Under the pieces are notes generated by a model. The model did no database searches. It was not told the DNA's origin and saw only the letters and a program-made list of their open reading frames with translations. The translations under genes and the position numbers were made by a program. A stretch of 64,000 bases of DNA from a virus (lineage: Duplodnaviria > Caudoviricetes), in IMG/VR virus record IMGVR_UViG_3300037721_000031, positions 64,001 through 128,000 of that record, one strand, 5' to 3'. Positions 4,221 to 63,866 of this stretch are shown here, in pieces (position 1 is the first letter of the stretch; the number at the start of each line of letters is the position of its first letter).

Positions 4221-4516
4221 TTAGTACTTTCAGCAATCTCAATATACTCTCGCAGCATGCGGATGCGTGCTTCAGCGTAAAAGGTATATGCATCCTCGTC
4301 CTTTAAATAGGAGGTGAGGCGCTCTTTAGCAGCTGATAATAGTTGTTCTGGTACAGCACCATTAATACACTTGACGTGACCTTCGCAGATTACGTACGTT
4401 ACATCACGGTACACAATTCTTAGAACATCGTCCATCAGTCCTGAATTTACTTTATCAGAAACCACGTACAATGTAGATTTATTTTTATGAGTACCAATAG
4501 CTGTAAATTGATTCAT
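4217..4516 (-). CDS. Small hypothetical protein, paralogue family MN(K/Q)FT, copy 1
   Basis: MNQFTAIGT...EGHVKC...PEQLLS...RIRMLREYI. Confidence 0.75.
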   Translation of the reverse strand: MNQFTAIGTHKNKSTLYVVSDKVNSGLMDDVLRIVYRDVTYVICEGHVKCINGAVPEQLLSAAKERLTSYLKDEDAYTFYAEARIRMLREYIEIAESTK

Positions 4517-45506: not shown

Positions 45507-48500
45507 ATGACTACTGTGACTTACCCTTTTGATCCGACGGGGAGTAATCCACTTTCTCGGGTTACTAACGAACAACACGTTCTCACGTCGCTTAACAATA
45601 CAGAACTATATCAGACGGTTATACCGTCAGCAGCACCTTTCTTTACAGATAACGTTATTATCTCGTTTACGAATCCGGATACTTCGATTCGGGTACTGAC
45701 AGAAGGTGTTGATTACTACTTCACACATATTTTTATTTCAGCTGGTAAAGCTACCGCTAAGCCGCTAGCTGGTTCAATTACGTTCCTTGATACCGATATT
45801 ACTGGGGTGCTTCGTGTAACGTACCAGACTATCGGTGGAGCATGGAACCTGGATGATAATGAGATTGCTGAGATTCTCGCTAACCTGATTAAGAATCCTC
45901 GTATCACTGCATGGGAACAAATAACTGACTTACCGTTCCAATTTCCGGTTATCGATCATGAGTGGAATTTATCCGACATGGTTGGTGCTACGGAGATCGT
46001 GGAAGGCATCAACGGTATTCGTGATGCGGTTCTGGCTGGTAATGCAGGCGGTATTGCGGCTCACGTAGGTAACACAAATAATCCTCATGAAACTACTAAG
46101 GCTCAAGTAGGTCTAGGTAGTGTTGAGAATTATCCTATTGCAACACAGACTCAGGCGCAGGTGGGTACTAACAACACGGCTTATATGACGCCGTTACGAG
46201 TAGCTCAAGCCATTAGTGAGTTTGGTGGTGGTGACTTAGCTACACACGTTACGCGTACTGATAATCCTCACGAAGTCACCAAGTCGCAAGTAGGTCTTGG
46301 CAGTGTTGAGAACTATGGTATCGCCAGTACTGGTGAAGCTACGTTAGGTACTTCAGATATTAAGTACATGACTCCGCTGAAGGTTAAGACAGTTGTTGAT
46401 GTAGTCAGCGCTTCTCTTGTATCACATACTGCGAATCAGTCAAATCCTCACAATACGACTAAGAGTCAGATTGGCCTGTTCAATGTTCAAAACTATGATG
46501 TAGCAACAGCAGTAGAGGCTCAAAACGGTACAGTCAACGATAAATACATGACTCCGTTGAGAGTGAAACAAGCTATTACTGCATTGGCATCTGTTGACTT
46601 AACAACTCACTTGATGGATACTGCTAATCCTCATAGTACGACCAAAGCACAAGTAGGTCTGGGCAGCGTCGATAACTTTCAGGTAGCGTCGCAGTTAGAA
46701 GCTGAAGCTGGATTGCTAACTAATCGCTTTATGACTCCCCAGAGAGTAGCGCAAGCGGTTACTGCACAAGTCGGTCAAAGTTTTGTAGATCACTTGAATG
46801 CGACAAATCCCCACGGAGTGACTAAGGATCAAGTAAATCTTGGTAATGTTGATAATTATGTTACTTCTTCACAAGTAGAAGCTGAAGCTGGTGATCTGAA
46901 CACTAGGTTCATGACTCCTTTGCGTACAAAGCAAGCTATCGCAGTTCTCGCTTCTGGAAGTATTGCTTCACATACGTCAGATACTAATAATCCTCACAAT
47001 ACGACTAAGAGTCAGATTGGGCTGGGTAACGTTAGCAATTATCTGACTGCTGATCAAGCTGAAGCTGAAGCTGGTAATGCCACAGATAAGTACATGACCC
47101 CATTGGGTACTTACCAAGCGATATCGTTTCAAGCAGTATCTCCTCTGAATACACACACTGCTGATATAGCTAATCCTCATGCGGTAACTAAATCTCAAGT
47201 AGGTCTAGGTAGTGTTGAGAATTATACAGTAGCTACGCAAGTTGAAGCTCAGGATGGCACTCTTAACGATAAGTACATGACTCCTCTGAGAGTGAAACAA
47301 GCTATTGTAGCTCTTGCATCTGGAGATATTGCGGCGCATACGTTGGATATGGGTAATCCCCATAACACAACCAAAACGCAGGTAGGTTTAGGGCTTGTAG
47401 AGAACTATACTGTAGCTTCACAAGCTGAAGCTGAAGCTGGTAATGCCACAGATAAGTACATGACACCATTACGTACTAATCAGGCAATCGCAACGCTGAT
47501 TAGTGGTACTGTTACAACACACATTAGTGATCATAACAACCCCCACGTAGTGACTAAGGCCCAGGTAGGCCTCGGTAATGTTAGTGATCTTTCTATAGCC
47601 AGTCAGGCGGAAGCTGAAGCAGGTAGCAGTAATGCCGCCTACATGACTCCTTTGCGCACATACCAGGCTATTGCAGTATTAGCATCAGGGAATATTGCTT
47701 CTCACTTGGCAGATACCAATAATCCTCATAGTACTACAAAAACACAGGTAGGTTTAGGTAATGTTGGTAACTTCGCTGTAGCTTCACAAGTTGAAGCTGA
47801 AGCTGGTAATGCCACAGATAAGTACATGACTCCGTTGAGTACTAATCAGGCAATTGCATTACAAGCAGTTACTCCGTTAAATACACACATTGCTGACCAG
47901 AGTAATCCGCATAACACTACAAAGACTCAGGTTGGTCTAGGTAATGTTAGTGATTTCGCTGTAGCTTCTCAGGCCGAAGCAGAAGCAGGTAGTAGCAGTA
48001 CTGTATACATGACGCCTCAGCGCACCGCACAGGCTATTTCGTCTCAGGTAGGATCGACATTATCTACGCACGTTAGTGATACTAATAATCCACACAACAC
48101 TACTGCATCACAGCTCGGTGTATACACAACATCGCAAGTAGACACTGCACTTGCAGGTAAACTTGGAACAGCTGCAACAGCGGCTAATTCCAGCCTGTTG
48201 GAAGGTAAATCTTCAGCAGTACTTTCTAGTGAAATAACACTTGCAGCTATTGCAGCTATAGAAACTTCGTTTGCGCCTCAATTGTTGGCAGCTAAGATGG
48301 ACTTTGACGCAGGTCTTGGTTCATTCTATACTTGGGTTCAATTAGGTGGATTATCTCTAGATGATACGGCTGGTAATGAAAATAGTCCACTGTGCTGGTT
48401 AATTAGTGGAATTGGTTACAATGCAAATGAAGATATAGTCGGACCTAATTATTCATTGAATTCTTATATCCTGACTGCAACTATCGCTGAAAATGCTGAG

Positions 48501-49367
48501 GCTGATGATATTATTGTAAACTCACAGTTGAAGTATTTAACTAGTGGCGGTAATATCGTTGTTGAGTTTAGACAGAAAATTGACGTTGCTTTGAAAGAAG
48601 TCACTTACTACATCAGACTTCCTAATGGTCATTCTCAGTTCTCTATTACAAACCTCAACCCTCACGGTTTCCAAGGTATTGACATTTTAGATGTTGGCGC
48701 TAGTACTCCTGCAAGCACTACAGAACTGTTACCTACAGGCGATGGTGACTTAACTGCTCACACATCAAATACCAGTAATCCTCATTCGACGACTAAAACT
48801 CAGGTGGGGTTAGGGTCTGTAGAAAACTATGCTATCGCCAGTCAAGCAGAAGCTGAGGCAGGTAGTAGTGATGTCAAGTATATGACACCACTTAAGACTG
48901 CACAAGCAATCACTATTCAGGCTGGCGCTGCACTGACTACGCATACTTCGAATACCAGTAATCCGCATAGCACTACAGCTACGCAGGTAGGTCTTGGTAG
49001 TGTTAGTAACTTTGCTGTAGCTTCACAAGCAGAAGCGGTAGCTGGTACAAGTGCTGTTAAATACATGACGCCTCAACGTACGCAACAAGCAATTGATGCG
49101 CAGGTTGGTACTGCCGCTAATACTCACTATAGCGATCAGAATAATCCTCACTTTGTGAATCAGAGTCAGGTTGGATTAGGTAATGTACAAAATTACGGTA
49201 TTGCTAGTCAGGCTCAAGCAGAAGCAGGTAGCGATAATGCCACCTACATGACTCCGTTACGCACAAAGCAAGCCATTACCTTACAGGTGGAAGCTATGCT
49301 GAATACATTACTTACGGAAGTTACAGCTGGCTTTACAGCTATCTCCAACGCAATGGCTTCAGTGTAA
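45507..49367 (+). CDS. Tail fibre protein 1 with 15 H-x5-NPH repeats
   Basis: N-terminal YPFDPTG...EQH...PSAAPFF anchor domain; about 61-aa repeats H..NPH..TK.QVGLG.V.N...A...EA.AG...YMTPLR..QAI. Confidence 0.85.
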   Translation: MTTVTYPFDPTGSNPLSRVTNEQHVLTSLNNTELYQTVIPSAAPFFTDNVIISFTNPDTSIRVLTEGVDYYFTHIFISAGKATAKPLAGSITFLDTDITGVLRVTYQTIGGAWNLDDNEIAEILANLIKNPRITAWEQITDLPFQFPVIDHEWNLSDMVGATEIVEGINGIRDAVLAGNAGGIAAHVGNTNNPHETTKAQVGLGSVENYPIATQTQAQVGTNNTAYMTPLRVAQAISEFGGGDLATHVTRTDNPHEVTKSQVGLGSVENYGIASTGEATLGTSDIKYMTPLKVKTVVDVVSASLVSHTANQSNPHNTTKSQIGLFNVQNYDVATAVEAQNGTVNDKYMTPLRVKQAITALASVDLTTHLMDTANPHSTTKAQVGLGSVDNFQVASQLEAEAGLLTNRFMTPQRVAQAVTAQVGQSFVDHLNATNPHGVTKDQVNLGNVDNYVTSSQVEAEAGDLNTRFMTPLRTKQAIAVLASGSIASHTSDTNNPHNTTKSQIGLGNVSNYLTADQAEAEAGNATDKYMTPLGTYQAISFQAVSPLNTHTADIANPHAVTKSQVGLGSVENYTVATQVEAQDGTLNDKYMTPLRVKQAIVALASGDIAAHTLDMGNPHNTTKTQVGLGLVENYTVASQAEAEAGNATDKYMTPLRTNQAIATLISGTVTTHISDHNNPHVVTKAQVGLGNVSDLSIASQAEAEAGSSNAAYMTPLRTYQAIAVLASGNIASHLADTNNPHSTTKTQVGLGNVGNFAVASQVEAEAGNATDKYMTPLSTNQAIALQAVTPLNTHIADQSNPHNTTKTQVGLGNVSDFAVASQAEAEAGSSSTVYMTPQRTAQAISSQVGSTLSTHVSDTNNPHNTTASQLGVYTTSQVDTALAGKLGTAATAANSSLLEGKSSAVLSSEITLAAIAAIETSFAPQLLAAKMDFDAGLGSFYTWVQLGGLSLDDTAGNENSPLCWLISGIGYNANEDIVGPNYSLNSYILTATIAENAEADDIIVNSQLKYLTSGGNIVVEFRQKIDVALKEVTYYIRLPNGHSQFSITNLNPHGFQGIDILDVGASTPASTTELLPTGDGDLTAHTSNTSNPHSTTKTQVGLGSVENYAIASQAEAEAGSSDVKYMTPLKTAQAITIQAGAALTTHTSNTSNPHSTTATQVGLGSVSNFAVASQAEAVAGTSAVKYMTPQRTQQAIDAQVGTAANTHYSDQNNPHFVNQSQVGLGNVQNYGIASQAQAEAGSDNATYMTPLRTKQAITLQVEAMLNTLLTEVTAGFTAISNAMASV
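46050..49290 (+). repeat. About 183-bp tandem coding repeats (15 units, interrupted by a unique domain at about 48120-48745)
   Basis: 15 NPH motifs counted in the translation. Confidence 0.85.
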
Positions 49368-49460: not shown

Positions 49461-52013
49461 ATGGCGACCCAGCTACCTCGCTATCCTCTTGACTCCACCG
49501 GTACTAGTCCTGATAACTTGGTAGTCGGTGAACAACATACATTACCTAACAGAACTATACGCGCACTAGCACCTCTGTACGGTGCATTTTTTACAGAATC
49601 TGTTGTGGTAAGGGATAGATCTAATAATCAAGTTCTCCAAAGAAATGTACAATATACCGCAACAGAACTCTATGAATTTCCTACAGGTCGCTGGGGAAAA
49701 GAAATTTGTGGTATCATTTTAATTACTGATGAAGCAGTCAGTAATGAAGTCGAAGTTGACTATCAGGCTCTCGGTGGTGAGTACAGTACCAATGTCGATG
49801 CAATTGTTTCGATGTTTAATGAAGCGATGCTGGAGCGACCTGTATCTTGGCCTAACATCTTAGGTCAACCGGATGATTTTAATCCGGCTGCTCACTTCCA
49901 TGATGTCGGTGACATTTATGGATTCGAATATGTTGTCAATGCTTTAGAGCGGCTTCGTACAGCAGTATTAATTGGTGATGCGGCATCTCACGAAGAGATC
50001 CTGAAATACATAGATAGACAAGATGAAGATATACGTGCAGACACCGCTGTTGTCTCTGGTAATCTAAGTGAACATACTGCAAACGTAAACAATCCTCACA
50101 ATACGACTAAGAGTCAAGTGGGGTTAGGTAGTGTTGAGAACTACCCAATAGCGACAACTACAGAAGCTCAGACAGGTACGGGTAATGCGTACATGACTCC
50201 AGCTCTAGTCAAATTGTCTATCGCGCCAGAGTTAACTCCATTTCAATCACACATTGCTAATACCAGCAACCCTCACAGTACAACAGCTACTCAAGTGGGA
50301 TTAGGTAGTGTACAGAATTACGATGTATCGACTCAAGCTGAAGCTGAAGCCGGTACCAGTAATGTTAAGTACATGACTCCGTTACGCACGTCACAAGCTA
50401 TCACTACACTGGCATTAGGACCTTTAGCAGTACATGCTGGTAGATCAGATAATCCGCACAATACAACAGCTACACAGGTAGGCTTAGGCAGTGTCAGTAA
50501 CTTTGCTGTAGCTACTCAAGCAGAAGCCGAAGCTGGTGCTAGCGGTACTACTTACATGACTCCGGCTCGTACTGCGCAAGCGATTACAGTACAAGCGTTA
50601 GGGCCTCTTAATACACATACTGCTCGTGTAGATAATCCCCATAATACCTCTAAATCTCAAGTAGGTTTAGGTAATGTTAGTAATTATGGTAATGCCGGTA
50701 TTACTGAGGCTCAAGCCGGCACCAGTGACAGTCATTTCATGACTCCGTTGCGTGTATCTCAGGCTATTAGTGCGTTAGCATTAGTACCTCTGAATACTCA
50801 CACTGCTCGTACTGATAATCCACATAGTACGACTAAATCTCAGGTCGGGTTGGGTAGTGTTGATAATTTCGCGACAGCTAGCCAGGCCGAAGCAGAAGCT
50901 GGTGTAAACGCAATTACGTTTATGACACCTCAGCGTACAGCACAGGCTATCTCTTTACAAGCTGTGGCTCCTTTGAATGTGCATACGGCTAGACAAGATA
51001 ATCCTCACAATACGACTAAGAGTCAAGTGGGGTTAGGTAGTGTTGATAATTTCGCGACAGCTACTCAAGCTGAAGCCCAGGCCGGTGCGAGTAATGCAAC
51101 ATTTATGACTCCTTTGCGTACAGCACAGGCTATAAGTGTTCAAGCGGTAGCTCCACTAAATTCCCACATTACTAACACCAGCAATCCTCATAGTACGACT
51201 GCTTCTCAGGTAGGCTTGGGTAGTGTACAGAATTATCCAGTAGCAACACAAATAGAGGCGGAAGGTGGTGTCAGTACTGTAACATATATGACTCCGTTAC
51301 GTACTGCTCAGTTAATAAATGTACAGGCAATTGCTCCTCTGAATACTCACATTGGTCGTACAGATAATCCTCATAGTACGACTAAATCTCAGGTCGGGTT
51401 GGGTAGTGTCAGTAACTTTGATATTGCTACTCAAGCAGAAGCCCAGGCAGGCAGTAGTAATGTTAAGTACATGACTCCGTTGAGTACTGCGCAAGCGATC
51501 TCGACTCAAGCCATAGCTCCGTTAAATACTCATACTGCCAGAACGGATAACCCCCATAGTACGACAGCTACTCAGGTGGGTTTAGGTAATGTTCAAAATC
51601 TTGGTTTAGCAAATACTTCTGAAGCCCAGGCCGGTACAAGTCATGCATTATACATGACACCATTACTTACAGCTCAAGCAATTAGTGCGCAAGCTTTATC
51701 ACCTCTAAATACTCACGTTGCTAGAACTGATAATCCTCACAGTACTACAGCTACGCAGGTAGGTCTTGGTAGTGTGAGTAACTTCGCTGTAGCTTCACAA
51801 GCAGAGTCTGAAGCGGGTAGCAGTAATGCTAAATACATGACTCCGTTAGGTGTGAATCAACGTGTAGCTGTCCACGTTGCTAGTGGTGATCATGACTCAA
51901 GGTACCCGCGATTGAATGCTAACGTATCTGCAGCCGTTCGTGAATCAGGTGGACAATTTCAAGCATTTATTGGTGGAGCTTGGCGTATTGTGTGGCCTCC
52001 TCAGTGGCAATAA
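49461..52013 (+). CDS. Tail fibre protein 2 with 10 H-x5-NPH repeats
   Basis: N-terminal YPLDSTG...GEQH...APLYGAFF domain paralogous to fibre 1; 10 repeats; C-terminal WRIVWPPQWQ. Confidence 0.85.
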   Translation: MATQLPRYPLDSTGTSPDNLVVGEQHTLPNRTIRALAPLYGAFFTESVVVRDRSNNQVLQRNVQYTATELYEFPTGRWGKEICGIILITDEAVSNEVEVDYQALGGEYSTNVDAIVSMFNEAMLERPVSWPNILGQPDDFNPAAHFHDVGDIYGFEYVVNALERLRTAVLIGDAASHEEILKYIDRQDEDIRADTAVVSGNLSEHTANVNNPHNTTKSQVGLGSVENYPIATTTEAQTGTGNAYMTPALVKLSIAPELTPFQSHIANTSNPHSTTATQVGLGSVQNYDVSTQAEAEAGTSNVKYMTPLRTSQAITTLALGPLAVHAGRSDNPHNTTATQVGLGSVSNFAVATQAEAEAGASGTTYMTPARTAQAITVQALGPLNTHTARVDNPHNTSKSQVGLGNVSNYGNAGITEAQAGTSDSHFMTPLRVSQAISALALVPLNTHTARTDNPHSTTKSQVGLGSVDNFATASQAEAEAGVNAITFMTPQRTAQAISLQAVAPLNVHTARQDNPHNTTKSQVGLGSVDNFATATQAEAQAGASNATFMTPLRTAQAISVQAVAPLNSHITNTSNPHSTTASQVGLGSVQNYPVATQIEAEGGVSTVTYMTPLRTAQLINVQAIAPLNTHIGRTDNPHSTTKSQVGLGSVSNFDIATQAEAQAGSSNVKYMTPLSTAQAISTQAIAPLNTHTARTDNPHSTTATQVGLGNVQNLGLANTSEAQAGTSHALYMTPLLTAQAISAQALSPLNTHVARTDNPHSTTATQVGLGSVSNFAVASQAESEAGSSNAKYMTPLGVNQRVAVHVASGDHDSRYPRLNANVSAAVRESGGQFQAFIGGAWRIVWPPQWQ
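50070..51870 (+). repeat. About 183-bp tandem coding repeats (10 units)
   Basis: 10 NPH motifs with a 61-aa period. Confidence 0.85.
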
Positions 52014-52082: not shown

Positions 52083-52595
52083 ATGACACATGTATTTATA
52101 GAGAAAATGAACCTTAATATAGTTAAGGAAGATCTATATATTGACGAGGTTCTTTTCAGTCCTTATACTTATCAGCAAGAACTTATAAAAATAATAGTAT
52201 CTCCAGACATCTGTATTAATGCTTTAAATGTAGCAGATACAGTAAGACACGCTGACAGGACTATCAAGATAGAGGGAATGGAGAAACTATCCAAAGTCCT
52301 CTATCGACTCTGTCGGCAGATTGCCGACAAAATGAGTCATGATGGTCCTGTCACGTGTCACCTTTTTTTATCTCGTTCTGGATCTGAGAGCTTTCCAGCC
52401 CATACAGATCCAGATAATGTTTTGATTTATATAGTTGATGGTGAGAAGACCATAGTGTTAGATAACGAAACAATTACTCTAACCACGGATCAAGCTTTAT
52501 TTATGCCGTATGGTACTAAGCATCAAGCTGTTAATCAAAAAGAATCAATCATGCTAAGTTTTGGCTTAGAACGGTTTATAGTGGAGAAACTCTAA
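52083..52595 (+). CDS. JmjC/cupin 2OG-Fe(II) oxygenase-like protein
   Basis: SFPAHTDPDNV (HxD), GEK, LFMPYGTKHQA (distal His); resembles RoxA/cupin_4-type hydroxylases. Confidence 0.78.
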   Translation: MTHVFIEKMNLNIVKEDLYIDEVLFSPYTYQQELIKIIVSPDICINALNVADTVRHADRTIKIEGMEKLSKVLYRLCRQIADKMSHDGPVTCHLFLSRSGSESFPAHTDPDNVLIYIVDGEKTIVLDNETITLTTDQALFMPYGTKHQAVNQKESIMLSFGLERFIVEKL

Positions 52596-52597
52596 TT

Positions 52598-53683
52598 ATG
52601 ATGCGCACCGTCTACGTCAAGACTACGGAATCATGTAATCTTGATTGCAAACATTGCTTTACTGGTGGTAATCGACCTCCTCGTACGTTTTTAGATTTAG
52701 CTAAGACTGAGGATTGGATATCTCGCTTTGCTAACTACATATCTCCTGAAGATGATGTGCATTTTGAGTTACATGGAGGAGAACCGTTTCTTGCTCCTGT
52801 AAGTACTCTGAAATCTATTGTAACTACAATACGAGCTACTGGTTTAAAACATATGTCTATTGGAGCTACTACTAATCTAGTATATAAACTCAAAGATGAT
52901 TTGTTAGATTTTATAGTTAATGATTTAGATGCAATTGGTACAAGCTGGGATGCAGGTATTCGTTTCGCTAATGAAAAGCAAGAAGAGTTATGGCGTAAGA
53001 ATCTTCAAACACTAACAGATAAGAACATAAAAGTTGTACTGAATATTAGTGTCTCTCGCGCTGTTGTCGAAATGGATTGCGAAAAATTAATTACATTTAT
53101 TAGAGATACTAAATGTTATAAAGTCTTATTTGACCGTATAACACTTAATGGCAACGCTAATAATCATTTAAAATTATTTCCATCTAATGCTGAAATAAAT
53201 GACTGGTATTTGCGCATGCATGAGGCAACTACTAGACTAGATGCTCGTAAATGGTTTCATAATTCCATGCTAGAAGATGTTTACGCCAAGTTCGAGAATT
53301 CATTCTCAGCATGCGGTACATTCTGCAGAGATTGTGAAGAACGAAATATCACTCTAAATGCAAATGGTTCTATTGGTGGTTGTCCAAATTCTGCTCCTGA
53401 AGAGTTCTTTGGTCACATCGATATGGATATTGCAGAAATGTTCGGTACATCTAAAAGAATAGATGTAATGGTGAAAGAGCGCACACGTAACGATCACTGT
53501 TATACTTGTCCTGTCTTCAGTTACTGTGGATCAGATTGTCATCGTTTGGCGTGGGATGGTGATGTATGTGCTTCACCGAGGCGGTTAATGATGCGGTTAG
53601 CAGGCGTAGATGACTCTCTAGAACAACGACCGGCGACTACCACTCGTGTGTATAAAAACATTATTCCAATCTTTTCATCTTAA
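52598..53683 (+). CDS. Radical SAM/SPASM enzyme 1
   Basis: CNLDCKHC, HGGEPF, TTNL; C-terminal CGTFCRDC, GGCP, CYTCPVFSYCGSDC. Confidence 0.93.
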   Translation: MMRTVYVKTTESCNLDCKHCFTGGNRPPRTFLDLAKTEDWISRFANYISPEDDVHFELHGGEPFLAPVSTLKSIVTTIRATGLKHMSIGATTNLVYKLKDDLLDFIVNDLDAIGTSWDAGIRFANEKQEELWRKNLQTLTDKNIKVVLNISVSRAVVEMDCEKLITFIRDTKCYKVLFDRITLNGNANNHLKLFPSNAEINDWYLRMHEATTRLDARKWFHNSMLEDVYAKFENSFSACGTFCRDCEERNITLNANGSIGGCPNSAPEEFFGHIDMDIAEMFGTSKRIDVMVKERTRNDHCYTCPVFSYCGSDCHRLAWDGDVCASPRRLMMRLAGVDDSLEQRPATTTRVYKNIIPIFSS

Positions 53684-53698: not shown

Positions 53699-54274
53699 AT
53701 GCCAGATATTCTTAAAAGTAATGTACAGACCGATGCATATTCGGCTATTGTTGATAACATAAATAGTGTTGCAACCGACTATGGTCCTGCACCTATTGGG
53801 TCAGAACGCGGTTTGTCGTATTGTAATACTGCGATGTTGGAGTATTACAGTTTTGATCCCTCTGAGGCATGGCTTGCTAGCTATTTAAGTGGAAGCATTA
53901 CCCGTAGTGGACTCGTTGCTAGAGTAGGTATACTAGGTGGTTGGTACGCCCGTACTACTTGGGCAATACACGGTTTGACTGGTACTACATCTAGTGGTGC
54001 TTGGGATGGTTTTACTGTTCCATTTAGTGAACTTGATATTTTCTTTGTAAAGCCAGAATATCATCAAAGTCATTATGATGCCACGATAGCGGCTATTGCA
54101 GCTGCCGATACATCTGAATTATTTAATGACATTACTAGAACTGCAGTCGTCTCTTACTTAGTTAGAATTAAAAATGTTGTGCTTAATAATGCCACAACTG
54201 GTGATGTTGTAGATCTAAGAGTATGTCATAGCTCGTGTCACTCTAACTGTCACGGTTCGCGTGGTCGTCGCTAA
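53699..54274 (+). CDS. Protein with C-terminal CHSSCHSNCHGSRGRR motif, candidate radical SAM substrate/precursor
   Basis: Triple C-H-x-x repeat at 54224-54259 followed by RGRR-stop; lies between two radical SAM genes. Confidence 0.7.
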   Translation: MPDILKSNVQTDAYSAIVDNINSVATDYGPAPIGSERGLSYCNTAMLEYYSFDPSEAWLASYLSGSITRSGLVARVGILGGWYARTTWAIHGLTGTTSSGAWDGFTVPFSELDIFFVKPEYHQSHYDATIAAIAAADTSELFNDITRTAVVSYLVRIKNVVLNNATTGDVVDLRVCHSSCHSNCHGSRGRR

Positions 54275-54287: not shown

Positions 54288-55355
54288 ATGAAAAATCTTA
54301 TTAACCGTGTTTACATTAAGCACGACAACAATATAACACCAAGTAGCTATCAGTCAAGAATAATTGTTACTGATCGTGAAATGAGATATCCTATTTCAGA
54401 AGAGAGAGAAGTGCTTGATAAGGTGTTTATTAAACACTATGTTAAGTCTCTTGATGAACTGGATACACTGTATGGCGATAGAGAAGGGTTTTGGTCGGCG
54501 ATGCTTCTCTCTACTGAGAAACTGCTGATTATTGCTTCTCCGGCATTTACAGCTGAATTACTAATCCAGTACTGGAAGTCTGTCTTTAAGGATCCGAGTA
54601 GGTCCTTTATTAAGCTAATGTACGATTTGTTTACAGCACAGGAAAATCTACTCGGTTGCCGTGAAAAAGAAAGACAAATATCTAAAGAAGATGTTAACGT
54701 TATTGACAGAAAGTGTGTACCTGTTAGTGATGATTTGTTTAATGCTTTATTTGATAAAGTAGAACATTCGCAGATTGTCTCCGAAGCTCCAGTGACCAAG
54801 TTACCTTTCGAATACCTGCTGATTGGTCACCTGACTAAATCTGGTGGAAAGGGTTTAAATACTGAGTTCTATCGGCGTGCATCAAGTATTGTGCTGTTAA
54901 ACATTGTAAGGGCTATTGTTAATGCTAAAGAAGATTTCTTTAGTGAGACACATAACTACTACTTACTCGATGACGAAACTAGTCTTGGTGAATTGCGTAC
55001 AAATCCGATAGGATATCTTTCTAAGCACAAACGTTTAGCTTGGGTAGTTGATGAAGAGTTTGTATACGGTAATGAGGATGTCATCCTCAAAAAGTATTCT
55101 TTAGATAAGCTTAAAGATATTTTTAAAGTTTATACCACACTCTTTAAGTTTGAATATGATGAAGAGAAAGCTCTTGATTTCATCATAGCCAAAGATTATG
55201 CTGGTATGATTAGATATGATATTGCTGATCAAAAGGGTAATTTCTTTGGCGCAGATAGTTTCACAGCCAAAATAAACGGATTACTTATATCTCACCTTTA
55301 CGAGCTAGTTCGTAATAGTAAGGCTCAAGAATTGGATTGCTTTTCATTGAAGTAA
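54288..55355 (+). CDS. Hypothetical protein of the radical SAM cluster
   Basis: ORF track 54261-55355; the ATG at 54288 after AGGT is the more likely start; no motif recognised. Confidence 0.75.
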   Translation: MKNLINRVYIKHDNNITPSSYQSRIIVTDREMRYPISEEREVLDKVFIKHYVKSLDELDTLYGDREGFWSAMLLSTEKLLIIASPAFTAELLIQYWKSVFKDPSRSFIKLMYDLFTAQENLLGCREKERQISKEDVNVIDRKCVPVSDDLFNALFDKVEHSQIVSEAPVTKLPFEYLLIGHLTKSGGKGLNTEFYRRASSIVLLNIVRAIVNAKEDFFSETHNYYLLDDETSLGELRTNPIGYLSKHKRLAWVVDEEFVYGNEDVILKKYSLDKLKDIFKVYTTLFKFEYDEEKALDFIIAKDYAGMIRYDIADQKGNFFGADSFTAKINGLLISHLYELVRNSKAQELDCFSLK

Positions 55356-56455
55356 CTATGTTCGACAAAAGTAACGTTGTGATTTTTGTAAGAGTTGTGC
55401 AAGGTTGTAATCTTAACTGCACACACTGCTTCACTCTTGGGAACCAAGATAAGGTATTGACAACACCTTTCGAATATATCGATCAGTTTCTTACATCAAT
55501 TAAGAAAAATGTCGATCCACGTCGAGGTGTTGTCTATTTACATGGTGGCGAGACATTCTTAGCTAAGTTATCATATCTTCGCAAAGTAACACAAAGAGCA
55601 CGAGAATTGTTCTCAGAAAAAGACTTTAAGATTATTCCACAGACTAACCTTGTTTATAAGCTTACTGATGACTTTCTAGATTTTATCCGCACAGAGTGTA
55701 ACGGGCATATTGGCGTATCTTGGGATGCCAAGATACGCTTTGGGTCAATTAAGACGGAACATCAAGAACGTCAAGAAGCAATGTATTTTCGTAATTTAAA
55801 AACATTACTAGATAATGGCTTTAAAGTGCATATTACAATTACAGCACAAAGACACTTACTAAACGTTAATCCATTGAACATAGCTAAGATGTTTGCAGGA
55901 GTAGCTTCAATAGACTTTGAACATCTAACAACATTCGATGAGAAGACTAGGGATTTACGTGTTAACTTACTGAAGTGGTCTAATTGGTTAGATAAGCTAG
56001 TTGATTATTATCAGCATAATGACGTAAGCTGGTGCCTGCCTCAGGTTGATCTTTTTACAAAGTCTATTGAGGATGGAGAAATTTATGCTTGTAAATGTAA
56101 CTGCTGTGATAGAAAAACGTTTACTCTAAATCCAAACGGCACTACTGGGTTTTGTCCGGACAATTCTTACATCTCACCTATATCTCATGTAAAAGAGATG
56201 ACTGAATCTTGGTCTACGTATGAAGAGAAAGCTCATAACGCTCACATTGAGCGATTAGCTACTTTGAGTACAGAGAACTGCTATACTTGTGAACATTATG
56301 CTGAGTGTGGCGGTAACTGTGAAGATACTTTCTTTGATGATTCTGGTGAATGTCCATTATCTAAGAAGGTGATCTCACGTATCAAGGAAAACAAGGTAAC
56401 ATTCATTAAATTACTTAATGAGCGTTCGAGTAAGAATTTAGCCGAAATGCAATAA
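55337..56455 (+). CDS. Radical SAM/SPASM enzyme 2
   Basis: CNLNCTHC, HGGETF, QTNL, VSWDA; CKCNCC, GFCP, CYTCEHYAECGGNC; paralogue of enzyme 1; probable start at the ATG at 55358. Confidence 0.93.
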   Translation: MLFIEVTMFDKSNVVIFVRVVQGCNLNCTHCFTLGNQDKVLTTPFEYIDQFLTSIKKNVDPRRGVVYLHGGETFLAKLSYLRKVTQRARELFSEKDFKIIPQTNLVYKLTDDFLDFIRTECNGHIGVSWDAKIRFGSIKTEHQERQEAMYFRNLKTLLDNGFKVHITITAQRHLLNVNPLNIAKMFAGVASIDFEHLTTFDEKTRDLRVNLLKWSNWLDKLVDYYQHNDVSWCLPQVDLFTKSIEDGEIYACKCNCCDRKTFTLNPNGTTGFCPDNSYISPISHVKEMTESWSTYEEKAHNAHIERLATLSTENCYTCEHYAECGGNCEDTFFDDSGECPLSKKVISRIKENKVTFIKLLNERSSKNLAEMQ

Positions 56456-56467: not shown

Positions 56468-57307
56468 GTGTCTGACGAAACAACTCAACAACCAGCTAGC
56501 GACGTACCTGTAGTTCCAGAATACCGTGAGGTAACTGCACCTATTGGTACTGAATTTATTAGAGAATTCTTTAAGAATAAGAATATTACATTCCTAGTAA
56601 ATCACTCTCAGTCTAGGTTAAAGGGAGCAGTGTTCCTTACGTACTTGGCTAACTTAGCAGTGCCATCAGATATTAGGTTTGACCAACCCTTATCTGAAGA
56701 CGAGTATGTAACTATCATGAGTGCATACCTGGTACAGCGCACGATTAGTAAAGCTAAGACGTTACAGCTGATGATGGCGCAGGTAATTCTCTGGGCTAAA
56801 GGATTGAGCTTCGACAAGATTCCGTATAAGACTGGTGTACCAGAGAGCCACGTCTTAGCATTTGCTAAGAAGAACGGTCCAACTATCATGAGGTGGTTGC
56901 ACTTTGTTGACTCATCTCATGTCTTCGCAATGTCATCTATCGAAGCACTGAAAAAGGAACATGATCCTTTACAGCATGGCGTTAGCGTCATTGATGATAA
57001 AGAGTATATTGGTCATAACGCAGTATTACTCTACGATGTACCGCTCTTTACAGAGTTCTACTTCTCTATTCCTAATGCAGGTTATCGTTCTTCGTATTTT
57101 GTACGACAGTATGAGGACTACATGTTCGGTAATGAGAAGTTCGCAAAGTTCTTTGCTGTAAAGAATAACTTTTTAGCAAACATATACGAAGGTGTAGCCT
57201 CAGGCTATATTGATCTGAATAAGCCAGAAGAGTGTATGCTACTTGAAGGAAATAATGATGTCGGAAGTATCGCAACTGACAGTACCGAAACACCTCAAAA
57301 CGGATAA
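56468..57307 (+). CDS. Hypothetical protein of the radical SAM cluster
   Basis: 279-aa ORF with upstream AAGGA. Confidence 0.75.
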   Translation: MSDETTQQPASDVPVVPEYREVTAPIGTEFIREFFKNKNITFLVNHSQSRLKGAVFLTYLANLAVPSDIRFDQPLSEDEYVTIMSAYLVQRTISKAKTLQLMMAQVILWAKGLSFDKIPYKTGVPESHVLAFAKKNGPTIMRWLHFVDSSHVFAMSSIEALKKEHDPLQHGVSVIDDKEYIGHNAVLLYDVPLFTEFYFSIPNAGYRSSYFVRQYEDYMFGNEKFAKFFAVKNNFLANIYEGVASGYIDLNKPEECMLLEGNNDVGSIATDSTETPQNG

Positions 57308-58394
57308 CTTCCTGACTTCTGTAGAGCGCGAAAGCGCCACTGGTTATCATCTCAGCTTAAACCTGGAATTACTACGCGGATGCCAGTTTAGCTGTAAGGG
57401 TTGTTTCGTAGATAAGTATGGTTCAGATCCAATGACTGACGAGCGAGGTGCGCAGCTTCTATCTTGGGTTACCAGTGCGCAAGAAGATGGTGGTTATCTA
57501 CCTACGGTAATATTTATCGGACCTACTGACTTCTTATCCTCTGGGAATACCATCGACGTACTGCGAGATCCACGTATTCAGCAAGTTGTCAGACGTTTTA
57601 AAAGACTATCTCTACAAACTACTTGTTTAGATATCAGTACAGCTCCAGAGATTGCTAAAGTGTTACGTGAACACTACAGTCATATGGAACTCGAGGTTAA
57701 CTTCTTAATGGAGCCAGAGCATGTTCTAACAGAGAAGTACCTTCGTACTGTTAAAGAGAATAGAGACAGTCTGTATGAGATAATTGACTGGCACATTCCC
57801 GTAAAAAGCTTCTGTATTATGAACGTCTATGAATACGAGAATGCAAAGAAAGATGACGTCATTAAGCTATTAAATGACTACAAAGAAATGCATTTGCGTA
57901 TCAAGGATATGTTTGATACTACAATTGACTTTAACTTCTCGATGTCAAGAAAACACAATCAAAACAAGTCATCCGAAGTTAAAGAAGCAATCATCAGAGT
58001 AACTAAGATGTTTGATAAAAGTGTTAATCACGATACATCTCAGTTTATTCGTTTCTCGTTTGGAAAATTAACTGATAGTCTGATCGAGAAACATTTTAAC
58101 TTTCTTAATGGTAAGTTTTACGTGTCACCATTACTTTACGATCGTTATGTAGCTTTTGTGCCAGAGTTGCAAATACCGTTTGTAAACTTTACTGTAGCTG
58201 AGTCTGAAGCATTTGAAGAACAGCTACAGCTAGAGCAATATCAGAATGCCGGCCAAAAAGACGAATGTGGTAGTTGTCGTTATCTTGGGTCGTGTACGGA
58301 TAGAAATATTCTTAAAGTTATGGATATCTATTCTATCAAGCACTGCATCATAGCGCGAGACGCCTTGGACAGTATTAACGTACGGCCAAATTAA
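57243..58394 (+). CDS. Radical SAM enzyme 3 (divergent, GPTD type)
   Basis: GCQFSCKGC, FIGPTDFL, C-terminal CGSCRYLGSC; probable start at about 57255-57258. Confidence 0.85.
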   Translation: MKEIMMSEVSQLTVPKHLKTDNFLTSVERESATGYHLSLNLELLRGCQFSCKGCFVDKYGSDPMTDERGAQLLSWVTSAQEDGGYLPTVIFIGPTDFLSSGNTIDVLRDPRIQQVVRRFKRLSLQTTCLDISTAPEIAKVLREHYSHMELEVNFLMEPEHVLTEKYLRTVKENRDSLYEIIDWHIPVKSFCIMNVYEYENAKKDDVIKLLNDYKEMHLRIKDMFDTTIDFNFSMSRKHNQNKSSEVKEAIIRVTKMFDKSVNHDTSQFIRFSFGKLTDSLIEKHFNFLNGKFYVSPLLYDRYVAFVPELQIPFVNFTVAESEAFEEQLQLEQYQNAGQKDECGSCRYLGSCTDRNILKVMDIYSIKHCIIARDALDSINVRPN

Positions 58395-58404
58395 CCTAGT
58401 AACA

Positions 58405-58444
58405 GCATAAGAGAGACTAGAGCGTACGCTCTAGTCTCTTGTGC
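58405..58444 (+). terminator. Hairpin inside the radical SAM cluster
   Basis: GCATAAGAGAGACTAGAGCGT-ACGCTCTAGTCTCTTGTGC. Confidence 0.65.
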
Positions 58445-58469
58445 CATAATTTAATAAAAGGTACTTGAC

Positions 58470-59531
58470 ATGCAAAATGCTGAAGAACAGTTACTTAAAC
58501 AGTTACTCGCTTCCAAAGTACAAGATTCCTCAGAAATAGAACACCATTTATTCGAATTGTGCAATCTTAATTGCTCCTTCTGCGGACAGGATCATGATTC
58601 GAAAGAAGGTATTGATACAATCTTAGAGAAAGCTCATCAGACTGTGGAGTTCATGCGTAACTCTCCATTGAAGAGCCATACAGTCAATGTGATGGGTGGC
58701 GAGATCTTTAATGATTTGGTACCAGATTCTGTATTTGATGACTATTATGCTTTTTATAAAGTTATTAATGACTATGCAGTTTCAAACGACCTTACAGTTA
58801 GAATTAACTTTGTAACCAATTTAATATTTTCTAAGAATACTTCTAGTGTTCAGAAATTACTTGAGATATGTGGTGACAATGTTTGGATTTCTACGTCTTA
58901 CGACTTTGCTGGTAGGGGGCTTGATATAAATCGCATGATGATGTTCAAACGTAATCTAGAGATCTTTAAGCCTCGTATCGGAGTAGTTGGTTTTGTACTG
59001 GCTAAGCCATCTATTCGTAAGTTGATTGCTGATAAAGATAAGTTCTTTAAAGAAGTTCTATACGCTAACTACCCGTTGTACTTTGATTGGTATGTACCTG
59101 AAAATAGTGCAGATAAGATGATGCCTTCAGAGCAAGAGATGCTTGACGGTCTTCTATTCGTTGCTGATCGTTATCCTAAGATAGAGCCAGTTAGAAGCAT
59201 GTTAGAAAATGAAGAAAATAAGATGACATGCTTTTCACTTAATAAGACAACTATCTTACCAGATGGTCGTGAAGTTAAGTGTAGGTATATGGAGTATGAA
59301 GCTGAACAGTTTGAGACTCCAATCGATTATTCTACTAATAGTGGAATCATCAATGCGCATCTCGAACGTAATGAATGTTTTAGTTGCGAGTGGTATAAAA
59401 GGTGTCCATTAGTATGCTTCGTACAATCAGACTGGACAAAAAGAGAAAGACTACCTGTCTGTTTTATGAAAACATTCTTTAACACAGCAGTCGGAAAAAA
59501 TAATGCCACCAACGATACAGATGAAAGATAA
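58470..59531 (+). CDS. Radical SAM enzyme 4
   Basis: CNLNCSFC, MGGEIF, VTNL, STSYD; C-terminal CFSCEWYKRCPLVC. Confidence 0.92.
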   Translation: MQNAEEQLLKQLLASKVQDSSEIEHHLFELCNLNCSFCGQDHDSKEGIDTILEKAHQTVEFMRNSPLKSHTVNVMGGEIFNDLVPDSVFDDYYAFYKVINDYAVSNDLTVRINFVTNLIFSKNTSSVQKLLEICGDNVWISTSYDFAGRGLDINRMMMFKRNLEIFKPRIGVVGFVLAKPSIRKLIADKDKFFKEVLYANYPLYFDWYVPENSADKMMPSEQEMLDGLLFVADRYPKIEPVRSMLENEENKMTCFSLNKTTILPDGREVKCRYMEYEAEQFETPIDYSTNSGIINAHLERNECFSCEWYKRCPLVCFVQSDWTKRERLPVCFMKTFFNTAVGKNNATNDTDER

Positions 59532-61737: not shown

Positions 61738-62814
61738 ATGGATCTCATCCTGAAACCAACTTCCGCTTGCAATTTTCGCTGCACGTTTTGCAGTTCAACA
61801 GTTTTAAGTGAAAATGATTCGGATGTACTGGATCTATCTTACGTACGAGAGTTTCTCGTACGTTTCCCAAATACACGAACCATCATAGTCAATGGTGGTG
61901 ATCCGCTAATGATGAGACCAGAGTACTATTGGGAGATTATCAGTATACTTGAAGAACTGGGGCTGAAAGATACCACGATATCACTTACAACTAATCTATG
62001 GGCATTCTACAAAAAGCCTGAGATGTGGCAGGATCTTTTCAAACATCCTCAAGTTGGAGTAGCAACAAGTTTCCAGTATGGTAATGCACGCTTGAAAGGT
62101 GACTATAAGCCTTATACAGAAGAAGAGTTCTGGAAAGTATCTGATTTGTTTTTAGAACGTATTGGATACAGGCCTAGTTTCATTGCGGTCATTACAAAAG
62201 AAAACGAAGACTCAGCAATACAGACTGTTGAATTGGCTAAGAAGATGGGTGTAGTGTGTAAGGTCAATTATGCAGTAGCTTCTGGCCCTAAGAAAACCAC
62301 ATTCAAAGGTATCACAATTGGTAATGCTGGTAGTACGTATGTGCTGTCTGACATTTACGAAATGTATATCAAGATCCATGAAGCAGGATTGACGCAGTGG
62401 GAACATAACACTTCACAAATGGCTGTACGTTTGCGTGGTGAGAACACTACATGCCCACAAGCTCGTGATTGCGACAGCGCTATTAGAACTTTACAGCCTG
62501 GAGGTAAATACTACTCCTGTGGGGCTTTTGGTGATGATGGTCTGTACCCCATCGACTTTAAAAAAGAAATGACTGGAGAGCTCGCTAGGCCCCTGCAAAC
62601 GCATGAGCTAATGTCATTGAAAACTGCGTGCTTCGAATGCCCGATGTTTGATATCTGTAATGGGTGTAGGAAAACTACTCACGATTTGAAGACACTAGGT
62701 TTAGTAGAAACACATTGCAAGAAAATGAAGACTCTTGCATCCAAGATCATTGAGATCAACGGTATGTCTGATGTGCTTAAACCTACTCCTTACATTAAGG
62801 AATATGAAGAATGA
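61738..62814 (+). CDS. Radical SAM/SPASM enzyme 5
   Basis: CNFRCTFC, NGGDPL, TTNL; CPQARDC, YSCG, CFECPMFDICNGC. Confidence 0.93.
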   Translation: MDLILKPTSACNFRCTFCSSTVLSENDSDVLDLSYVREFLVRFPNTRTIIVNGGDPLMMRPEYYWEIISILEELGLKDTTISLTTNLWAFYKKPEMWQDLFKHPQVGVATSFQYGNARLKGDYKPYTEEEFWKVSDLFLERIGYRPSFIAVITKENEDSAIQTVELAKKMGVVCKVNYAVASGPKKTTFKGITIGNAGSTYVLSDIYEMYIKIHEAGLTQWEHNTSQMAVRLRGENTTCPQARDCDSAIRTLQPGGKYYSCGAFGDDGLYPIDFKKEMTGELARPLQTHELMSLKTACFECPMFDICNGCRKTTHDLKTLGLVETHCKKMKTLASKIIEINGMSDVLKPTPYIKEYEE

Positions 62815-63866
62815 GCTACAGTAACTCAGTATCTCTTATACTTGAAGGGAGTCAGGGTTGCCAAATGAATTGTACTGGGTGCCGTATAAACAAAGCATCG
62901 TCATACTTTCCTTCTGAAAGAGAACAGTACGATATAGACGCATTCCTAGACAGTGTTGTAGCTGATGGTTTAGAGCTGGATGAGGTGGAGCTTGGACCTA
63001 CTGATTTATTGTCTGCAAGTAATCGAGTAGAGTTTTTTAGTCCCTATTTGAAGGTATTAATTGAGCGCTTTAAACTAGCAGCTTTTCAAGTATCTCTTAT
63101 TCATCCGAGAGAATCTGTGGAAGGTTTTGTAGCTGATATTAACAAAGTAGCTAACTCAAATTCTAAGATTAATCTTACAACACCGCTTGAAGTGAAGCAT
63201 GTCTTTAATGATAAGTATATTCAGCGTATTAAAGATAATGTTGAAATTATTCGGCAAGGCTCTATTTCTCGTGTAGATGAAGTGGTCTTGAGTGTCGTCT
63301 TCGATATTGATATACTGTCTAATATTGGTTCTAAATATAACTACGAAGAACTCTTTTGCAGAGTGCGTAACTTATCTATAGGTCCTGACACATTAGTAGA
63401 TTTTGTTTTTCATCACGGTCGTGGTGATCTAACTGATCCTGTCGTAGGTAAGAACTTTATAAAATCATTTAAAGAAGTAAATCGCTTCTTTACTAATGAT
63501 TTTGAACGTAATGCAGATATGCCTACAGTAAGAAAAATGCCTTCTCAGCTAGTGGTGCCAAATGACCGTCCAGTGGAAGTTGTTTGGAGAGCAGGTAAGT
63601 TATTCATCAGACCAATCTTAAATGAAGGTTTTGTAATTGAAGACTCTCGTTTTGAGATTTCTAAGCCTTGGGATGCATCGACATATCGTACAAAGTTGAT
63701 TGAAGACATAACTCGCAATCTGGAATATTCGGAACAGATAGATGATTGTCAAAGCTGTCAACACGTGATGCTGTGTGCCTCACGTTCCATGCATGACGTA
63801 TTACAAATGGTTGGTAGTAAGCATTGTTTCTACTTGCTTAAAGACTATAAACCAATTGAATTGTAA
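62811..63866 (+). CDS. Radical SAM enzyme 6 (divergent, GPTD type)
   Basis: GCQMNCTGC, ELGPTDLL, C-terminal CQSCQHVMLC; paralogue of enzyme 3. Confidence 0.85.
   Translation: MSYSNSVSLILEGSQGCQMNCTGCRINKASSYFPSEREQYDIDAFLDSVVADGLELDEVELGPTDLLSASNRVEFFSPYLKVLIERFKLAAFQVSLIHPRESVEGFVADINKVANSNSKINLTTPLEVKHVFNDKYIQRIKDNVEIIRQGSISRVDEVVLSVVFDIDILSNIGSKYNYEELFCRVRNLSIGPDTLVDFVFHHGRGDLTDPVVGKNFIKSFKEVNRFFTNDFERNADMPTVRKMPSQLVVPNDRPVEVVWRAGKLFIRPILNEGFVIEDSRFEISKPWDASTYRTKLIEDITRNLEYSEQIDDCQSCQHVMLCASRSMHDVLQMVGSKHCFYLLKDYKPIEL

Follow-up and report, generated by a model that had tools for sequence, protein, structure and literature searches.

The described enzymes closest to the one considered here are the anaerobic sulfatase-maturating enzymes (anSME; AtsB/ChuR; TIGR03942; PDB 4K36-4K39), which are ~360 to 370 amino acids (aa) long, lack the recognition element (RRE) of ribosomally synthesized and posttranslationally modified peptide (RiPP) pathways, combine a radical S-adenosylmethionine (radical-SAM) core with a SPASM domain carrying two auxiliary clusters, and act on Cys in a short motif of a whole protein. 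In the sactipeptide, ranthipeptide and QhpD/QhpC systems (PapB, CteB/SCIFF, NxxcB and QhpD), a SPASM enzyme is found beside a substrate with regularly spaced cysteines, and in the case of QhpC that substrate is a protein subunit, not a released peptide. The CXXX-repeat system (TIGR04114/TIGR04117 targets, TIGR04115 maturase) has Cys at every fourth residue, an adjacent radical-SAM enzyme and a phage tail-fibre operon, and the His-Xaa-Ser system (HxsA to HxsD; TIGR03976 to TIGR03979) has H-x-S triplets with radical-SAM enzymes nearby. Features of all these systems are seen in a window of 64,000 nucleotides, the whole stretch of DNA that we analysed, which comprises bases 64001-128000 of the 266.6-kb IMG/VR phage record IMGVR_UViG_3300037721_000031 (CheckV, 98% complete; GC, 39.9%). 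Here, an open reading frame (ORF) at 53699-54274 (+) encodes a protein of 191 aa, termed the carrier, that ends in a tail of three C-H-x-x units and R-G-R-R, and the gene directly upstream encodes a radical-SAM/SPASM enzyme, termed rSAM1. We think it probable that the carrier belongs to the virion, in association with the fibre, and that rSAM1, together with a JmjC/cupin oxygenase, modifies the cysteines of its tail. By analogy, the module would work most like the SPASM enzymes that have protein substrates (anSME and QhpD).

The carrier ORF starts with ATG and its C terminus is VCHSSCHSNCHGSRGRR, followed by a stop; the final residues are ...DLRVCHSSCHSNCHGSRGRR, and the stop codon is TAA. This end reads VVDLRV-CHSS-CHSN-CHGS-RGRR, which places a cysteine at every fourth residue (C176, C180 and C184) in three units, and it is the sole CH..CH motif in the entire 266.6-kb phage genome. 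For the next gene, a start at ATG 54288 is preferred over GTG 54261 (the PHROG alignment begins at residue 10), and the tail is therefore not overlapped by that gene. A first-pass annotation, made from the DNA letters without database searches, had singled out this ORF for its terminal CHSS-CHSN-CHGS-RGRR and for the HSS and HGS triplets within it; the ORF and both triplets are as described, and there is an HSN triplet as well.

Conservation of the tail in homologues, on which the same annotation had made its proposal depend, was observed. In nine full-length homologues (39 to 62% identity), all tail residues are kept save G186 and S187 (SA in one), while outside the tail the mean column identity is 60%. 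An exhaustive profile search returned 895 clusters at 50% identity with E <= 1e-3, 708 of them with E <= 1e-10, and 133 of the best 147 full-domain matches end CH..CH..CH..R.RR; among the variants, some have one extra residue (CHxSGRGRR), some have four CH units and some lack RGRR at the end. The consensus, C-H-x-[SN]-C-H-x-[SN]-C-H-x-S-R-G-R-R-COOH, has essentially fixed Cys, His and terminal Arg, and the Ser of 'HxS' can be exchanged for Asn or Ala within the family, whereas Cys and His are invariant. Pattern scans at the DNA level yielded 34 viral contigs with the strict tail and at least 120 with a relaxed form, along with 32 further contigs from cellular assemblies, making 193 tail ORFs at 164 loci among the matches listed. 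Such scans force the conserved residues, and the noncircular tests are the loci fetched via the enzyme, the profile search and codon usage. In 158 distinct tail DNA sequences, the two codons for Cys and for His are each used ~50/50 and Ser12 draws on both TCN and AGY, and selection therefore acts on the peptide and not on a DNA or RNA motif. The tail is almost invariant over hundreds of phages and some predatory bacteria, and its conservation is far beyond chance.

Two of the overlapping units, CHSSCH and CHSNCH, formally fit CX3CH, a rare known variant of the CXXCH haem c motif, which raises the idea that the tail is a set of variant c-type haem attachment sites. We find this hardly credible and have rejected it: no signal peptide was found on the phage or Bdellovibrionota carriers, virion assembly is cytoplasmic and thus apart from the Ccm machinery, overlap of the units would prevent the use of all of them, and no haem lyase is linked to the cassette.

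The tail and rSAM1 are found together whichever of them is used as the starting point (locus counts here and below cover evaluable loci among the matches listed). Among 78 viral loci fetched via rSAM1 alone, 77 carry an ORF ending in CH..CH..CH plus six residues; it lies no more than 2.3 kb downstream of rSAM1 in those 77 and is the next gene in 67. The last six residues were left free in that scan, and all 77 read x-[SNA]-R-[GSNA]-R-R. At the lone exception (L177:4001-5062), the ORF that follows an rSAM1 relative (54% identity) encodes 407 aa and has no tail. In the opposite direction, an rSAM1 orthologue lies upstream of the tail gene in 90 of 121 loci, and some CxxxCxxC ORF lies within 3 kb of the tail in 145 of 156, most of the 11 exceptions having a flank truncated on at least one side. 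The first-pass annotation had named as a refutation a tail that is an unmodified metal-binding site in genomes lacking radical-SAM genes; among loci with flanks of sufficient length, none was found that has a tail gene but no radical-SAM genes in its context. Only some hundreds of 2.9 million contigs are rSAM1 positive, among the matches listed. On this comparative evidence, the co-occurrence of tail and rSAM1 is near-absolute in both directions, which supports the proposal that the tail protein is a radical-SAM substrate: it is the best candidate substrate for the adjacent rSAM1.

In class-A loci, gene order is highly conserved: cupin, rSAM1 orthologue, carrier, unk279-like gene and further radical-SAM genes. 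Class B consists of short carriers (125 to 140 aa), usually in tandem pairs, that adjoin a different ~400-aa radical-SAM enzyme without a canonical SPASM motif; when class-B viral fragments were searched whole, five of five encoded an rSAM1 orthologue 9 to 12 kb away (E ~1e-148). Many marine-type phage contigs (class-B loci L070, L047, L055, L095, L111, L120, L125, L141 and others) have two tandem carriers with the same tail, followed by the ~400-aa radical-SAM enzyme, ~367- and ~278-aa proteins and another radical-SAM enzyme. One 151-kb contig (L017 and L130) holds both class-A and class-B modules. The same layout as in the window is present in the cultured phages RSF1 and RSL2 of Ralstonia, Atu_ph07 of Agrobacterium and pPa_SNUABM_DT01 of Pseudomonas, where the homologues end in VCHSSCHSSCHGSRGRR (RSF1 ORF071), FCHSSCHASCHNSRSRR (Atu_ph07 gp170) and ICHTSCHTSCHSARGRR (pPa_SNUABM_DT01). 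The related Ralstonia/Burkholderia jumbo phages RsoM3USA, FLC-series and S13 have rSAM1 orthologues of ~60% identity, rSAM1 being the gene by which they were compared.

The rSAM1 protein has the radical-SAM motif CxxxCxxC as CNLDCKHC at residues 13 to 20, with all three cysteines invariant in 46 orthologues, and the SPASM motif (CX2CX5CX3C) as CYTCPVFSYCGSDC, with C301, C304, C310, C314 and C324 invariant in the same set. It scores 28.1 bits against the SPASM model TIGR04085 (cut-off, 27) and, in Pfam, 27.8 bits against Fer4_12, above the cut-off, and 25.3 bits against Radical_SAM, just below the cut-off of 29.5. With both the cluster motif and the SPASM domain present, rSAM1 can be placed by its sequence in the radical-SAM/SPASM superfamily. 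Since the cluster motif begins at residue 13, there is no room for an RRE, and no RRE-type Pfam or NCBIfam match was found in its neighbours. All NCBIfam matches of rSAM1 are far below their cut-offs (DynA, 57 bits; anSME, 45; PapB, 45; HxsB, 30). Profile positions 11 to 318 align to residues 12 to 333 of anSME 4K36/4K37 (E = 7e-9), and among solved structures only anSME (4K36-39) aligns over the whole rSAM1 profile, the others matching only the N-terminal core. A predicted complex of rSAM1, carrier, three 4Fe-4S clusters and SAM scored 0.18 against a mark of 0.32 and is evidence neither way.

How far the likeness to anSME extends can be judged from the last tail unit, which is C-H-[GSTN]-S-R: set against the sulfatase motif C-x-P-S-R, it has Cys, Ser and Arg at corresponding positions. 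Only 3 of 158 tails have Ala at the third position (Pro does not figure among the tabulated residues). The general motif (C/S)-x-(P/A)-x-R is not matched by the carrier tail, which lacks the Pro/Ala of that motif, consists of three repeated units and lies at the extreme C terminus. The substrates would differ too, anSME acting on sulfatases and the carrier being a virion protein, not a hydrolase, without a sulfatase fold, and rSAM1 scores 45.0 bits against a TIGR03942 cut-off of 349.45, far below the family threshold, so that we rejected anSME proper. The resemblance of C-H-x-S-R to the sulfatase motif thus suggests a lead, not membership.

Weak full-length NCBIfam matches of rSAM1 include PapB, DynA and DarE, and its 45 to 57 bits are far below the sactipeptide, ranthipeptide and Qhp cut-offs of 340 to 650; unlike those systems, the module here has no RRE, leader cleavage or exporter, its His residues are co-invariant with Cys, and its substrate would be a folded protein of 125 to 320 aa that is found in virions. 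In contrast to the CXXX-repeat system, there are only three units here, each with an invariant His, the end is SRGRR-COOH, and the tail belongs to a separate folded protein. The CXXX-repeat maturase TIGR04115 was rejected as a family for these enzymes (best score, 18.1 bits against 350, over the first 66 model positions, the generic N-terminal core, with the same weak signal in 12 of 14 control genomes), as was the target TIGR04114, which gave no match on the tail and a single 13.6-bit match elsewhere in the genome. The first-pass annotation had also linked the tail to the His-Xaa-Ser system, a connection that does not stand. The His-Xaa-Ser signature is without Cys, which is invariant in the carrier tail; neither HxsA (TIGR03979) nor HxsD (TIGR03976) gave a match at E <= 10 in the whole phage genome; HxsB (TIGR03978) reached 30.4 bits against 370 on rSAM1; and HxsC (TIGR03977) reached 27.3 against 267.9, on rSAM5, a later gene of the block, only.

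The same annotation had suspected that the long N-terminal part of the carrier is a folded domain, not a leader, and modelling bears this out. AlphaFold2 with 120 sequences predicts a compact alpha/beta domain at residues 1 to 175 with a mean predicted local distance difference test (pLDDT) score of 89.2 and a predicted template modelling score of 0.84 (a 10-sequence alignment gave a poor model, pLDDT 53, and the 120-sequence alignment was used). The tail is predicted with low confidence (pLDDT ~52) and emerges after a beta-strand. Neither Pfam, searched with all 120 members, nor NCBIfam, searched with the window protein, has a family for the carrier; Foldseek with the carrier model gave no match to the PDB at E <= 0.001; the best hit of the carrier profile to PDB sequences (E = 0.17) was noise; and the best Z score of a wide VIA-align search, 4.9, was within noise. 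In AFDB clusters and BFVD, the only fold matches were other proteins of the carrier family, all uncharacterised, Atu_ph07 gp170 among them. The model thus resembles no solved fold that we could recognise, from which a new fold does not follow. A tblastn search of the carrier and one distant member against 50,697 phage records gave no match, and the cultured-phage homologues were located via synteny with rSAM1. Mean column identity is 18% in the carrier alignment and 46% in the rSAM1 alignment, from largely the same loci; set beside the invariant tail, the 18% means that the domain evolves fast and the tail does not.

Class-B carriers align to residues 67 to 191 of the long form (hhalign probability, 99.5% over 113 columns, a score of which the tail probably supplies much), and on this evidence the carrier family would share a core of ~110 aa plus the tail. 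At L013:11753-13467, L109, L126 and L046, there are two tandem long carriers (e.g., 309 and 260 aa), each with a tail. Three BFVD proteins of 504 to 660 aa from Myoviridae sp. ctijX18 (A0A8S5USJ7, A0A8S5USJ8 and A0A8S5USV2) share part of the carrier fold; their Foldseek probabilities are 0.35 to 1.0, with template modelling scores by query of 0.34 to 0.47, and the predicted models suggest that the carrier domain may occur inside longer structural proteins too.

The genes around the carrier, from the fibre genes through the cupin, rSAM1 and the later genes of the island, are all on the + strand, co-directional and densely packed. They run in the order two fibre-like genes, cupin/JmjC, rSAM1, carrier, phrog_36207, rSAM2, unk279, rSAM3, rSAM4, a set of helix-turn-helix (HTH), YnfA-like and Nudix genes, rSAM5 and rSAM6, as follows.

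45507..49367, +, tail-fibre-like protein 1, 1286 aa, with ~14 repeats of ~60 aa (phrog_2163, phrog_13857 and tail fibre PHROGs, E = 6e-302)
49461..52013, +, tail-fibre-like protein 2, 850 aa, with 10 repeats, adjoining the cassette on its 5' side (phrog_2163, E = 1e-257; tail and tail-fibre PHROGs)
52083..52595, +, cupin/JmjC-type putative Fe(II)/2-oxoglutarate (2OG) oxygenase, 170 aa (Pfam Cupin_2 and JmjC_2)
52598..53683, +, rSAM1, radical-SAM/SPASM enzyme, 361 aa, without an N-terminal RRE (CNLDCKHC, SPASM motif, TIGR04085)
53699..54274, +, carrier protein, 191 aa, predicted alpha/beta domain at residues 1 to 175 plus C-terminal tail (phrog_35144; AlphaFold2 model)
54224..54271, +, tail CHSS-CHSN-CHGS-RGRR, residues 176 to 191, predicted to be flexible (pLDDT ~52; conservation)
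54288..55355, +, 355-aa protein, phrog_36207, seen at some class-A loci (homologues 3' of the carrier in RSF1, RSL2 and Bdellovibrionota loci)
55337..56455, +, rSAM2, second radical-SAM/SPASM enzyme (CNLNCTHC; TIGR04085 at 22 bits, below the cut-off of 27; weak full-length matches to anSME and peptide maturases)
56468..57307, +, unk279, 279 aa, phrog_20767, the most constant downstream partner (3' in 96 of 130 evaluable loci)
57255..59531, +, rSAM3 and rSAM4, CxxxCxxC proteins of 379 and 353 aa (orthologues recur 3' in most loci; no NCBIfam family)
61738..63866, +, rSAM5 and rSAM6 (CxxxCxxC; two more CxxxCxxC ORFs just past the window end)

The two giant fibre-like proteins, both phrog_2163, are built from 10 to 14 copies of a ~60-aa repeat (NPH-x-TT-x-SQVGLG-x-V-x-N...). 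A scan of 49-58 kb for sigma-70 promoters and intrinsic terminators gave no enrichment over shuffled controls, and the tight, co-directional packing would fit a single transcription unit.

The gene upstream of the cassette encodes a fibre in all cases examined. Fibres of the phrog_2163 type are upstream here and, in the same position, in RSF1, RSL2 and pPa_SNUABM_DT01. At 9 of 10 sampled loci, the fibre has a C-terminal domain in common (phrog_19602 'tail fiber protein', phrog_22593 and phrog_6427). A hidden Markov model of that domain finds it at 53 of 87 evaluable loci, where the median distance from its end to the carrier gene is 1.5 kb; Atu_ph07 gp176 (L003:3596-5419) carries it with E = 4.7e-43. 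The domain is ~130 aa long, is present in gp176 and 80 other ORFs of the fetched loci and always ends no more than 16 residues from the C terminus. As the commonest upstream neighbour, it is a candidate docking partner of the carrier. A small, fast-diverging gene just 3' of a fibre gene is also the setting of the T-even gp38 adhesin, lambda Tfa and Mu U, and the products of these tail-fibre accessory genes can stay on the virion. They differ from the carrier in having no sequence or fold similarity to it, and to our knowledge none requires a radical-SAM enzyme. One protein from the family profile search (P0087, 453 aa) has the carrier domain and tail fused to a 270-aa Gly-rich, fibre-like N-terminal region.

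The cassette is not confined to phages. On a 1.29-Mb Halobacteriovoraceae contig, its neighbour encodes a fibre-like protein bearing a Peptidase_S74 intramolecular chaperone, and housekeeping genes flank the cassette, which is therefore chromosomal; a second Bdellovibrionota genome has the same arrangement of cassette and S74 fibre-like protein. In these two Bdellovibrionota genomes (L170:9765-11006 [-] and L172:14655-15692 [-]), the cassette is chromosomal and lies beside the S74 fibre-like proteins and a 2OG-Fe(II) oxygenase. Gene context suggests that predatory bacteria employ the same module on their own fibre-like adhesins.

For one homologue, the location in the virion is known. Atu_ph07 gp170 (31.89 kDa) is in the published virion proteome, with eight unique peptides giving 35% coverage in bands 1 to 9, and it is most abundant in gel band 1, the top band (PMC6102473, Table S5). 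It is the only protein of less than 50 kDa with at least three peptides whose signal peaks in band 1 (PMC6102473, Table S5), an anomalous high-mass migration. Its neighbours gp176 and gp177 are likewise virion proteins, while gp171, gp172, gp169, gp168 and gp165 are not in the virion list (PMC6102473, Table S5); gp169 is the unk279 homologue and the other four are enzymes. These data, which are particle data for the homologue gp170, together with the position of the cassette directly behind fibre genes, support the view that the carrier is virion and fibre associated, as the first-pass annotation had guessed when it spoke of a structural or tail-associated protein.

The proteome also bears on the idea that the carrier is an adaptor or scaffold whose tail docks in rSAM1, with its cysteines ligating, for example, an auxiliary cluster, and that it brings the enzyme to the true substrate, the neighbouring fibre or the unk279-like protein. 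Such an arrangement would fit the conserved fibre C-terminal domain just upstream in 53 of 87 loci, the constancy of the unk279-like protein (96 of 130), which has no catalytic residues, and a cassette with many more radical-SAM enzymes than obvious substrates. Yet in Atu_ph07 the carrier is in the virion and the enzymes are not, which fits a product better than an enzyme cofactor, and the upstream fibre type varies (phrog_2163, phrog_19602/22593 or S74 chaperone) while the tail is constant. We regard the adaptor role as rather improbable.

The window and the ORFs just past its end hold eight CxxxCxxC radical-SAM ORFs in one co-directional block of ~13 kb, from 52598 to ~65.6 kb, along with the cupin, an HTH protein, a YnfA/UPF0060 membrane protein and a Nudix hydrolase. 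No NCBIfam family was matched by rSAM3, rSAM4 or rSAM6, rSAM5 gave weak below-cut-off matches only, and rSAM4 and rSAM5 orthologues recur in most related loci. A block of this kind, with eight radical-SAM genes, an oxygenase, and Nudix and YnfA-like genes, might instead make a small molecule (an antibiotic, a metallophore or a redox cofactor like pyrroloquinoline quinone [PQQ] or mycofactocin) from the last 16 residues of the carrier, with the N-terminal domain as a large leader. The C-terminal position of the putative core would suit this, C-terminal modification being typical of mycofactocin-type pathways. Against it, no protease or exporter/transporter is consistently linked to the loci, rSAM1 has no RRE, the N-terminal domain is a conserved fold of 110 to 300 aa, the position is always behind fibre genes, and tryptic peptides of the Atu_ph07 homologue cover 35% of it in purified virions. 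We therefore consider a released product decidedly improbable. A strict RiPP was rejected on like grounds (no RRE, a folded and nondisposable N-terminal part, no linked protease or transporter, and N-domain peptides in virions).

The 170-aa protein encoded before rSAM1 matches Cupin_2 with 37.8 bits (cut-off, 27.2) and JmjC_2 with 29.7 bits (cut-off, 22), and its H107-x-D109...H147 triad is at least 90% conserved in 64 orthologues. From this fold match and the HxD...H triad, it can be assigned as a putative JmjC/cupin Fe(II)-dependent oxygenase. JmjC protein hydroxylases act on residues such as His, Asn and Arg, and by analogy the cupin could hydroxylate any of these. The conserved residues of unk279 are aromatic or structural, with no obvious catalytic set, and a look-up in Protein Atlas returned unnamed clusters only.

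On the reading that we favour, the carrier would not be a peptide precursor of leader and core but a structural protein of the virion, associated with the tail fibre, in which a compact, fast-evolving alpha/beta domain bears a flexible and invariant tail, (C-H-x-x)3 plus R-G-R-R-COOH. The tail would be both the recognition and the reaction site of rSAM1, a dedicated SPASM enzyme encoded directly upstream. The enzyme is RRE-less and resembles anSME, whose substrates are whole proteins; it would generate a 5'-deoxyadenosyl radical for a reaction at or via the three cysteines, the outcome being either thioether cross-links of the sactipeptide/ranthipeptide type or a Cys oxidation like that of anSME, and a His, Asn or Arg in the tail would probably be hydroxylated by the JmjC/cupin oxygenase. 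A chemically stapled or reactive C terminus may result, locking the carrier into a high-mass assembly of great stability on the fibre or together with it, with a role in fibre assembly or stability.

Several observations weigh against this proposal. The case for modification consists of genomic association and one published proteome. The short class-B carriers lie beside a non-SPASM radical-SAM enzyme, with rSAM1 only in trans, and no more than 65 of 113 evaluable loci have the cupin upstream. It would be unusual, though not unknown, for a single pathway in aerobic hosts to combine an oxygenase that needs O2 with a radical-SAM enzyme that is sensitive to it. RSF1 ORF071 is annotated as hypothetical only, while the nearby ORF067 is marked as a virion protein. 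The gel loading buffer used for Atu_ph07 is listed without a reducing agent (PMC6102473), and the high-mass species of gp170 could therefore be disulfide linked via the tail cysteines; equally, it could be a trimer resistant to sodium dodecyl sulfate, as is common for fibres. Finally, three Cys and three His are also plausible as a metal site.

In its full form, the last of these points would have an unmodified site for Zn, Fe, Ni or Cu, formed by the three Cys and three His, possibly across the chains of a trimer, that stabilises a fibre-associated oligomer, with the radical-SAM genes acting elsewhere, on the fibre or a small molecule. Invariant Cys and His are classic soft-metal ligands and are regularly spaced here, a carrier homologue is virion associated and runs as a very stable high-mass species, metal-binding repeats occur in T4 fibres, and His-rich motifs hold metal ions in some phage fibres. 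A metal site would have no need of a near-absolute, two-way coupling to one SPASM enzyme, however, and the absence of tail genes outside radical-SAM contexts where flanks were long enough to judge points the same way. It would also leave the invariant S-R-G-R-R-COOH end unexplained, and thiolate sites are ill suited to the extracellular, oxidising environment. We judge this explanation possible, though unlikely.

With modification of the tail by rSAM1 still as the preferred reading, a bolder form of it, to which we give little weight, is that tail cysteines become formylglycine-type aldehydes or radical-derived thioethers that covalently rivet the carrier to itself or to the fibre tip. If true, the structures for host recognition would contain a covalent lock put in place by an enzyme, one shared by jumbo phages, marine phages and the fibre-like adhesins of predatory Bdellovibrionota.

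Blocks of multiple radical-SAM genes have been noted in phages for more than fifteen years without a substrate, the usual reading being auxiliary metabolism. Campylobacter phages CP220/CPt10 have 11 to 12 radical-SAM genes (PMC2853527), and a marine T4-like genome has 12 (PMC5332604). The papers on the cultured phages named above mention radical-SAM and cupin genes only as accessory genes, and a literature search turned up neither a mention of the tail nor a substrate assigned to such phage blocks. The module is real, widespread and apparently undescribed, a variant of radical-SAM protein/peptide maturation with good support for the proposed substrate and for the virion link, and the pattern of genes and conserved residues suggests a previously undescribed enzymatic modification of a fibre-associated virion protein. 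For such blocks, it provides a testable candidate substrate in the form of a virion protein whose invariant last 16 residues go with a single SPASM enzyme, and the phages Atu_ph07, RSF1/RSL2, FLC6/S13 and pPa_SNUABM_DT01 are in culture. If the proposal is true, radical-SAM chemistry familiar from antibiotic peptides and from the activation of sulfatases would serve as well to complete the host-recognition machinery of viruses and predatory bacteria, and a short, portable tag with a dedicated enzyme would be of interest for protein engineering.

Elsewhere in the window, at 3580-4516 (-), lie three tandem paralogous ORFs of ~100 aa with similar C termini (...RLKEYISIVES, ...RLREYMKVTET and ...MLREYIEIAESTK).

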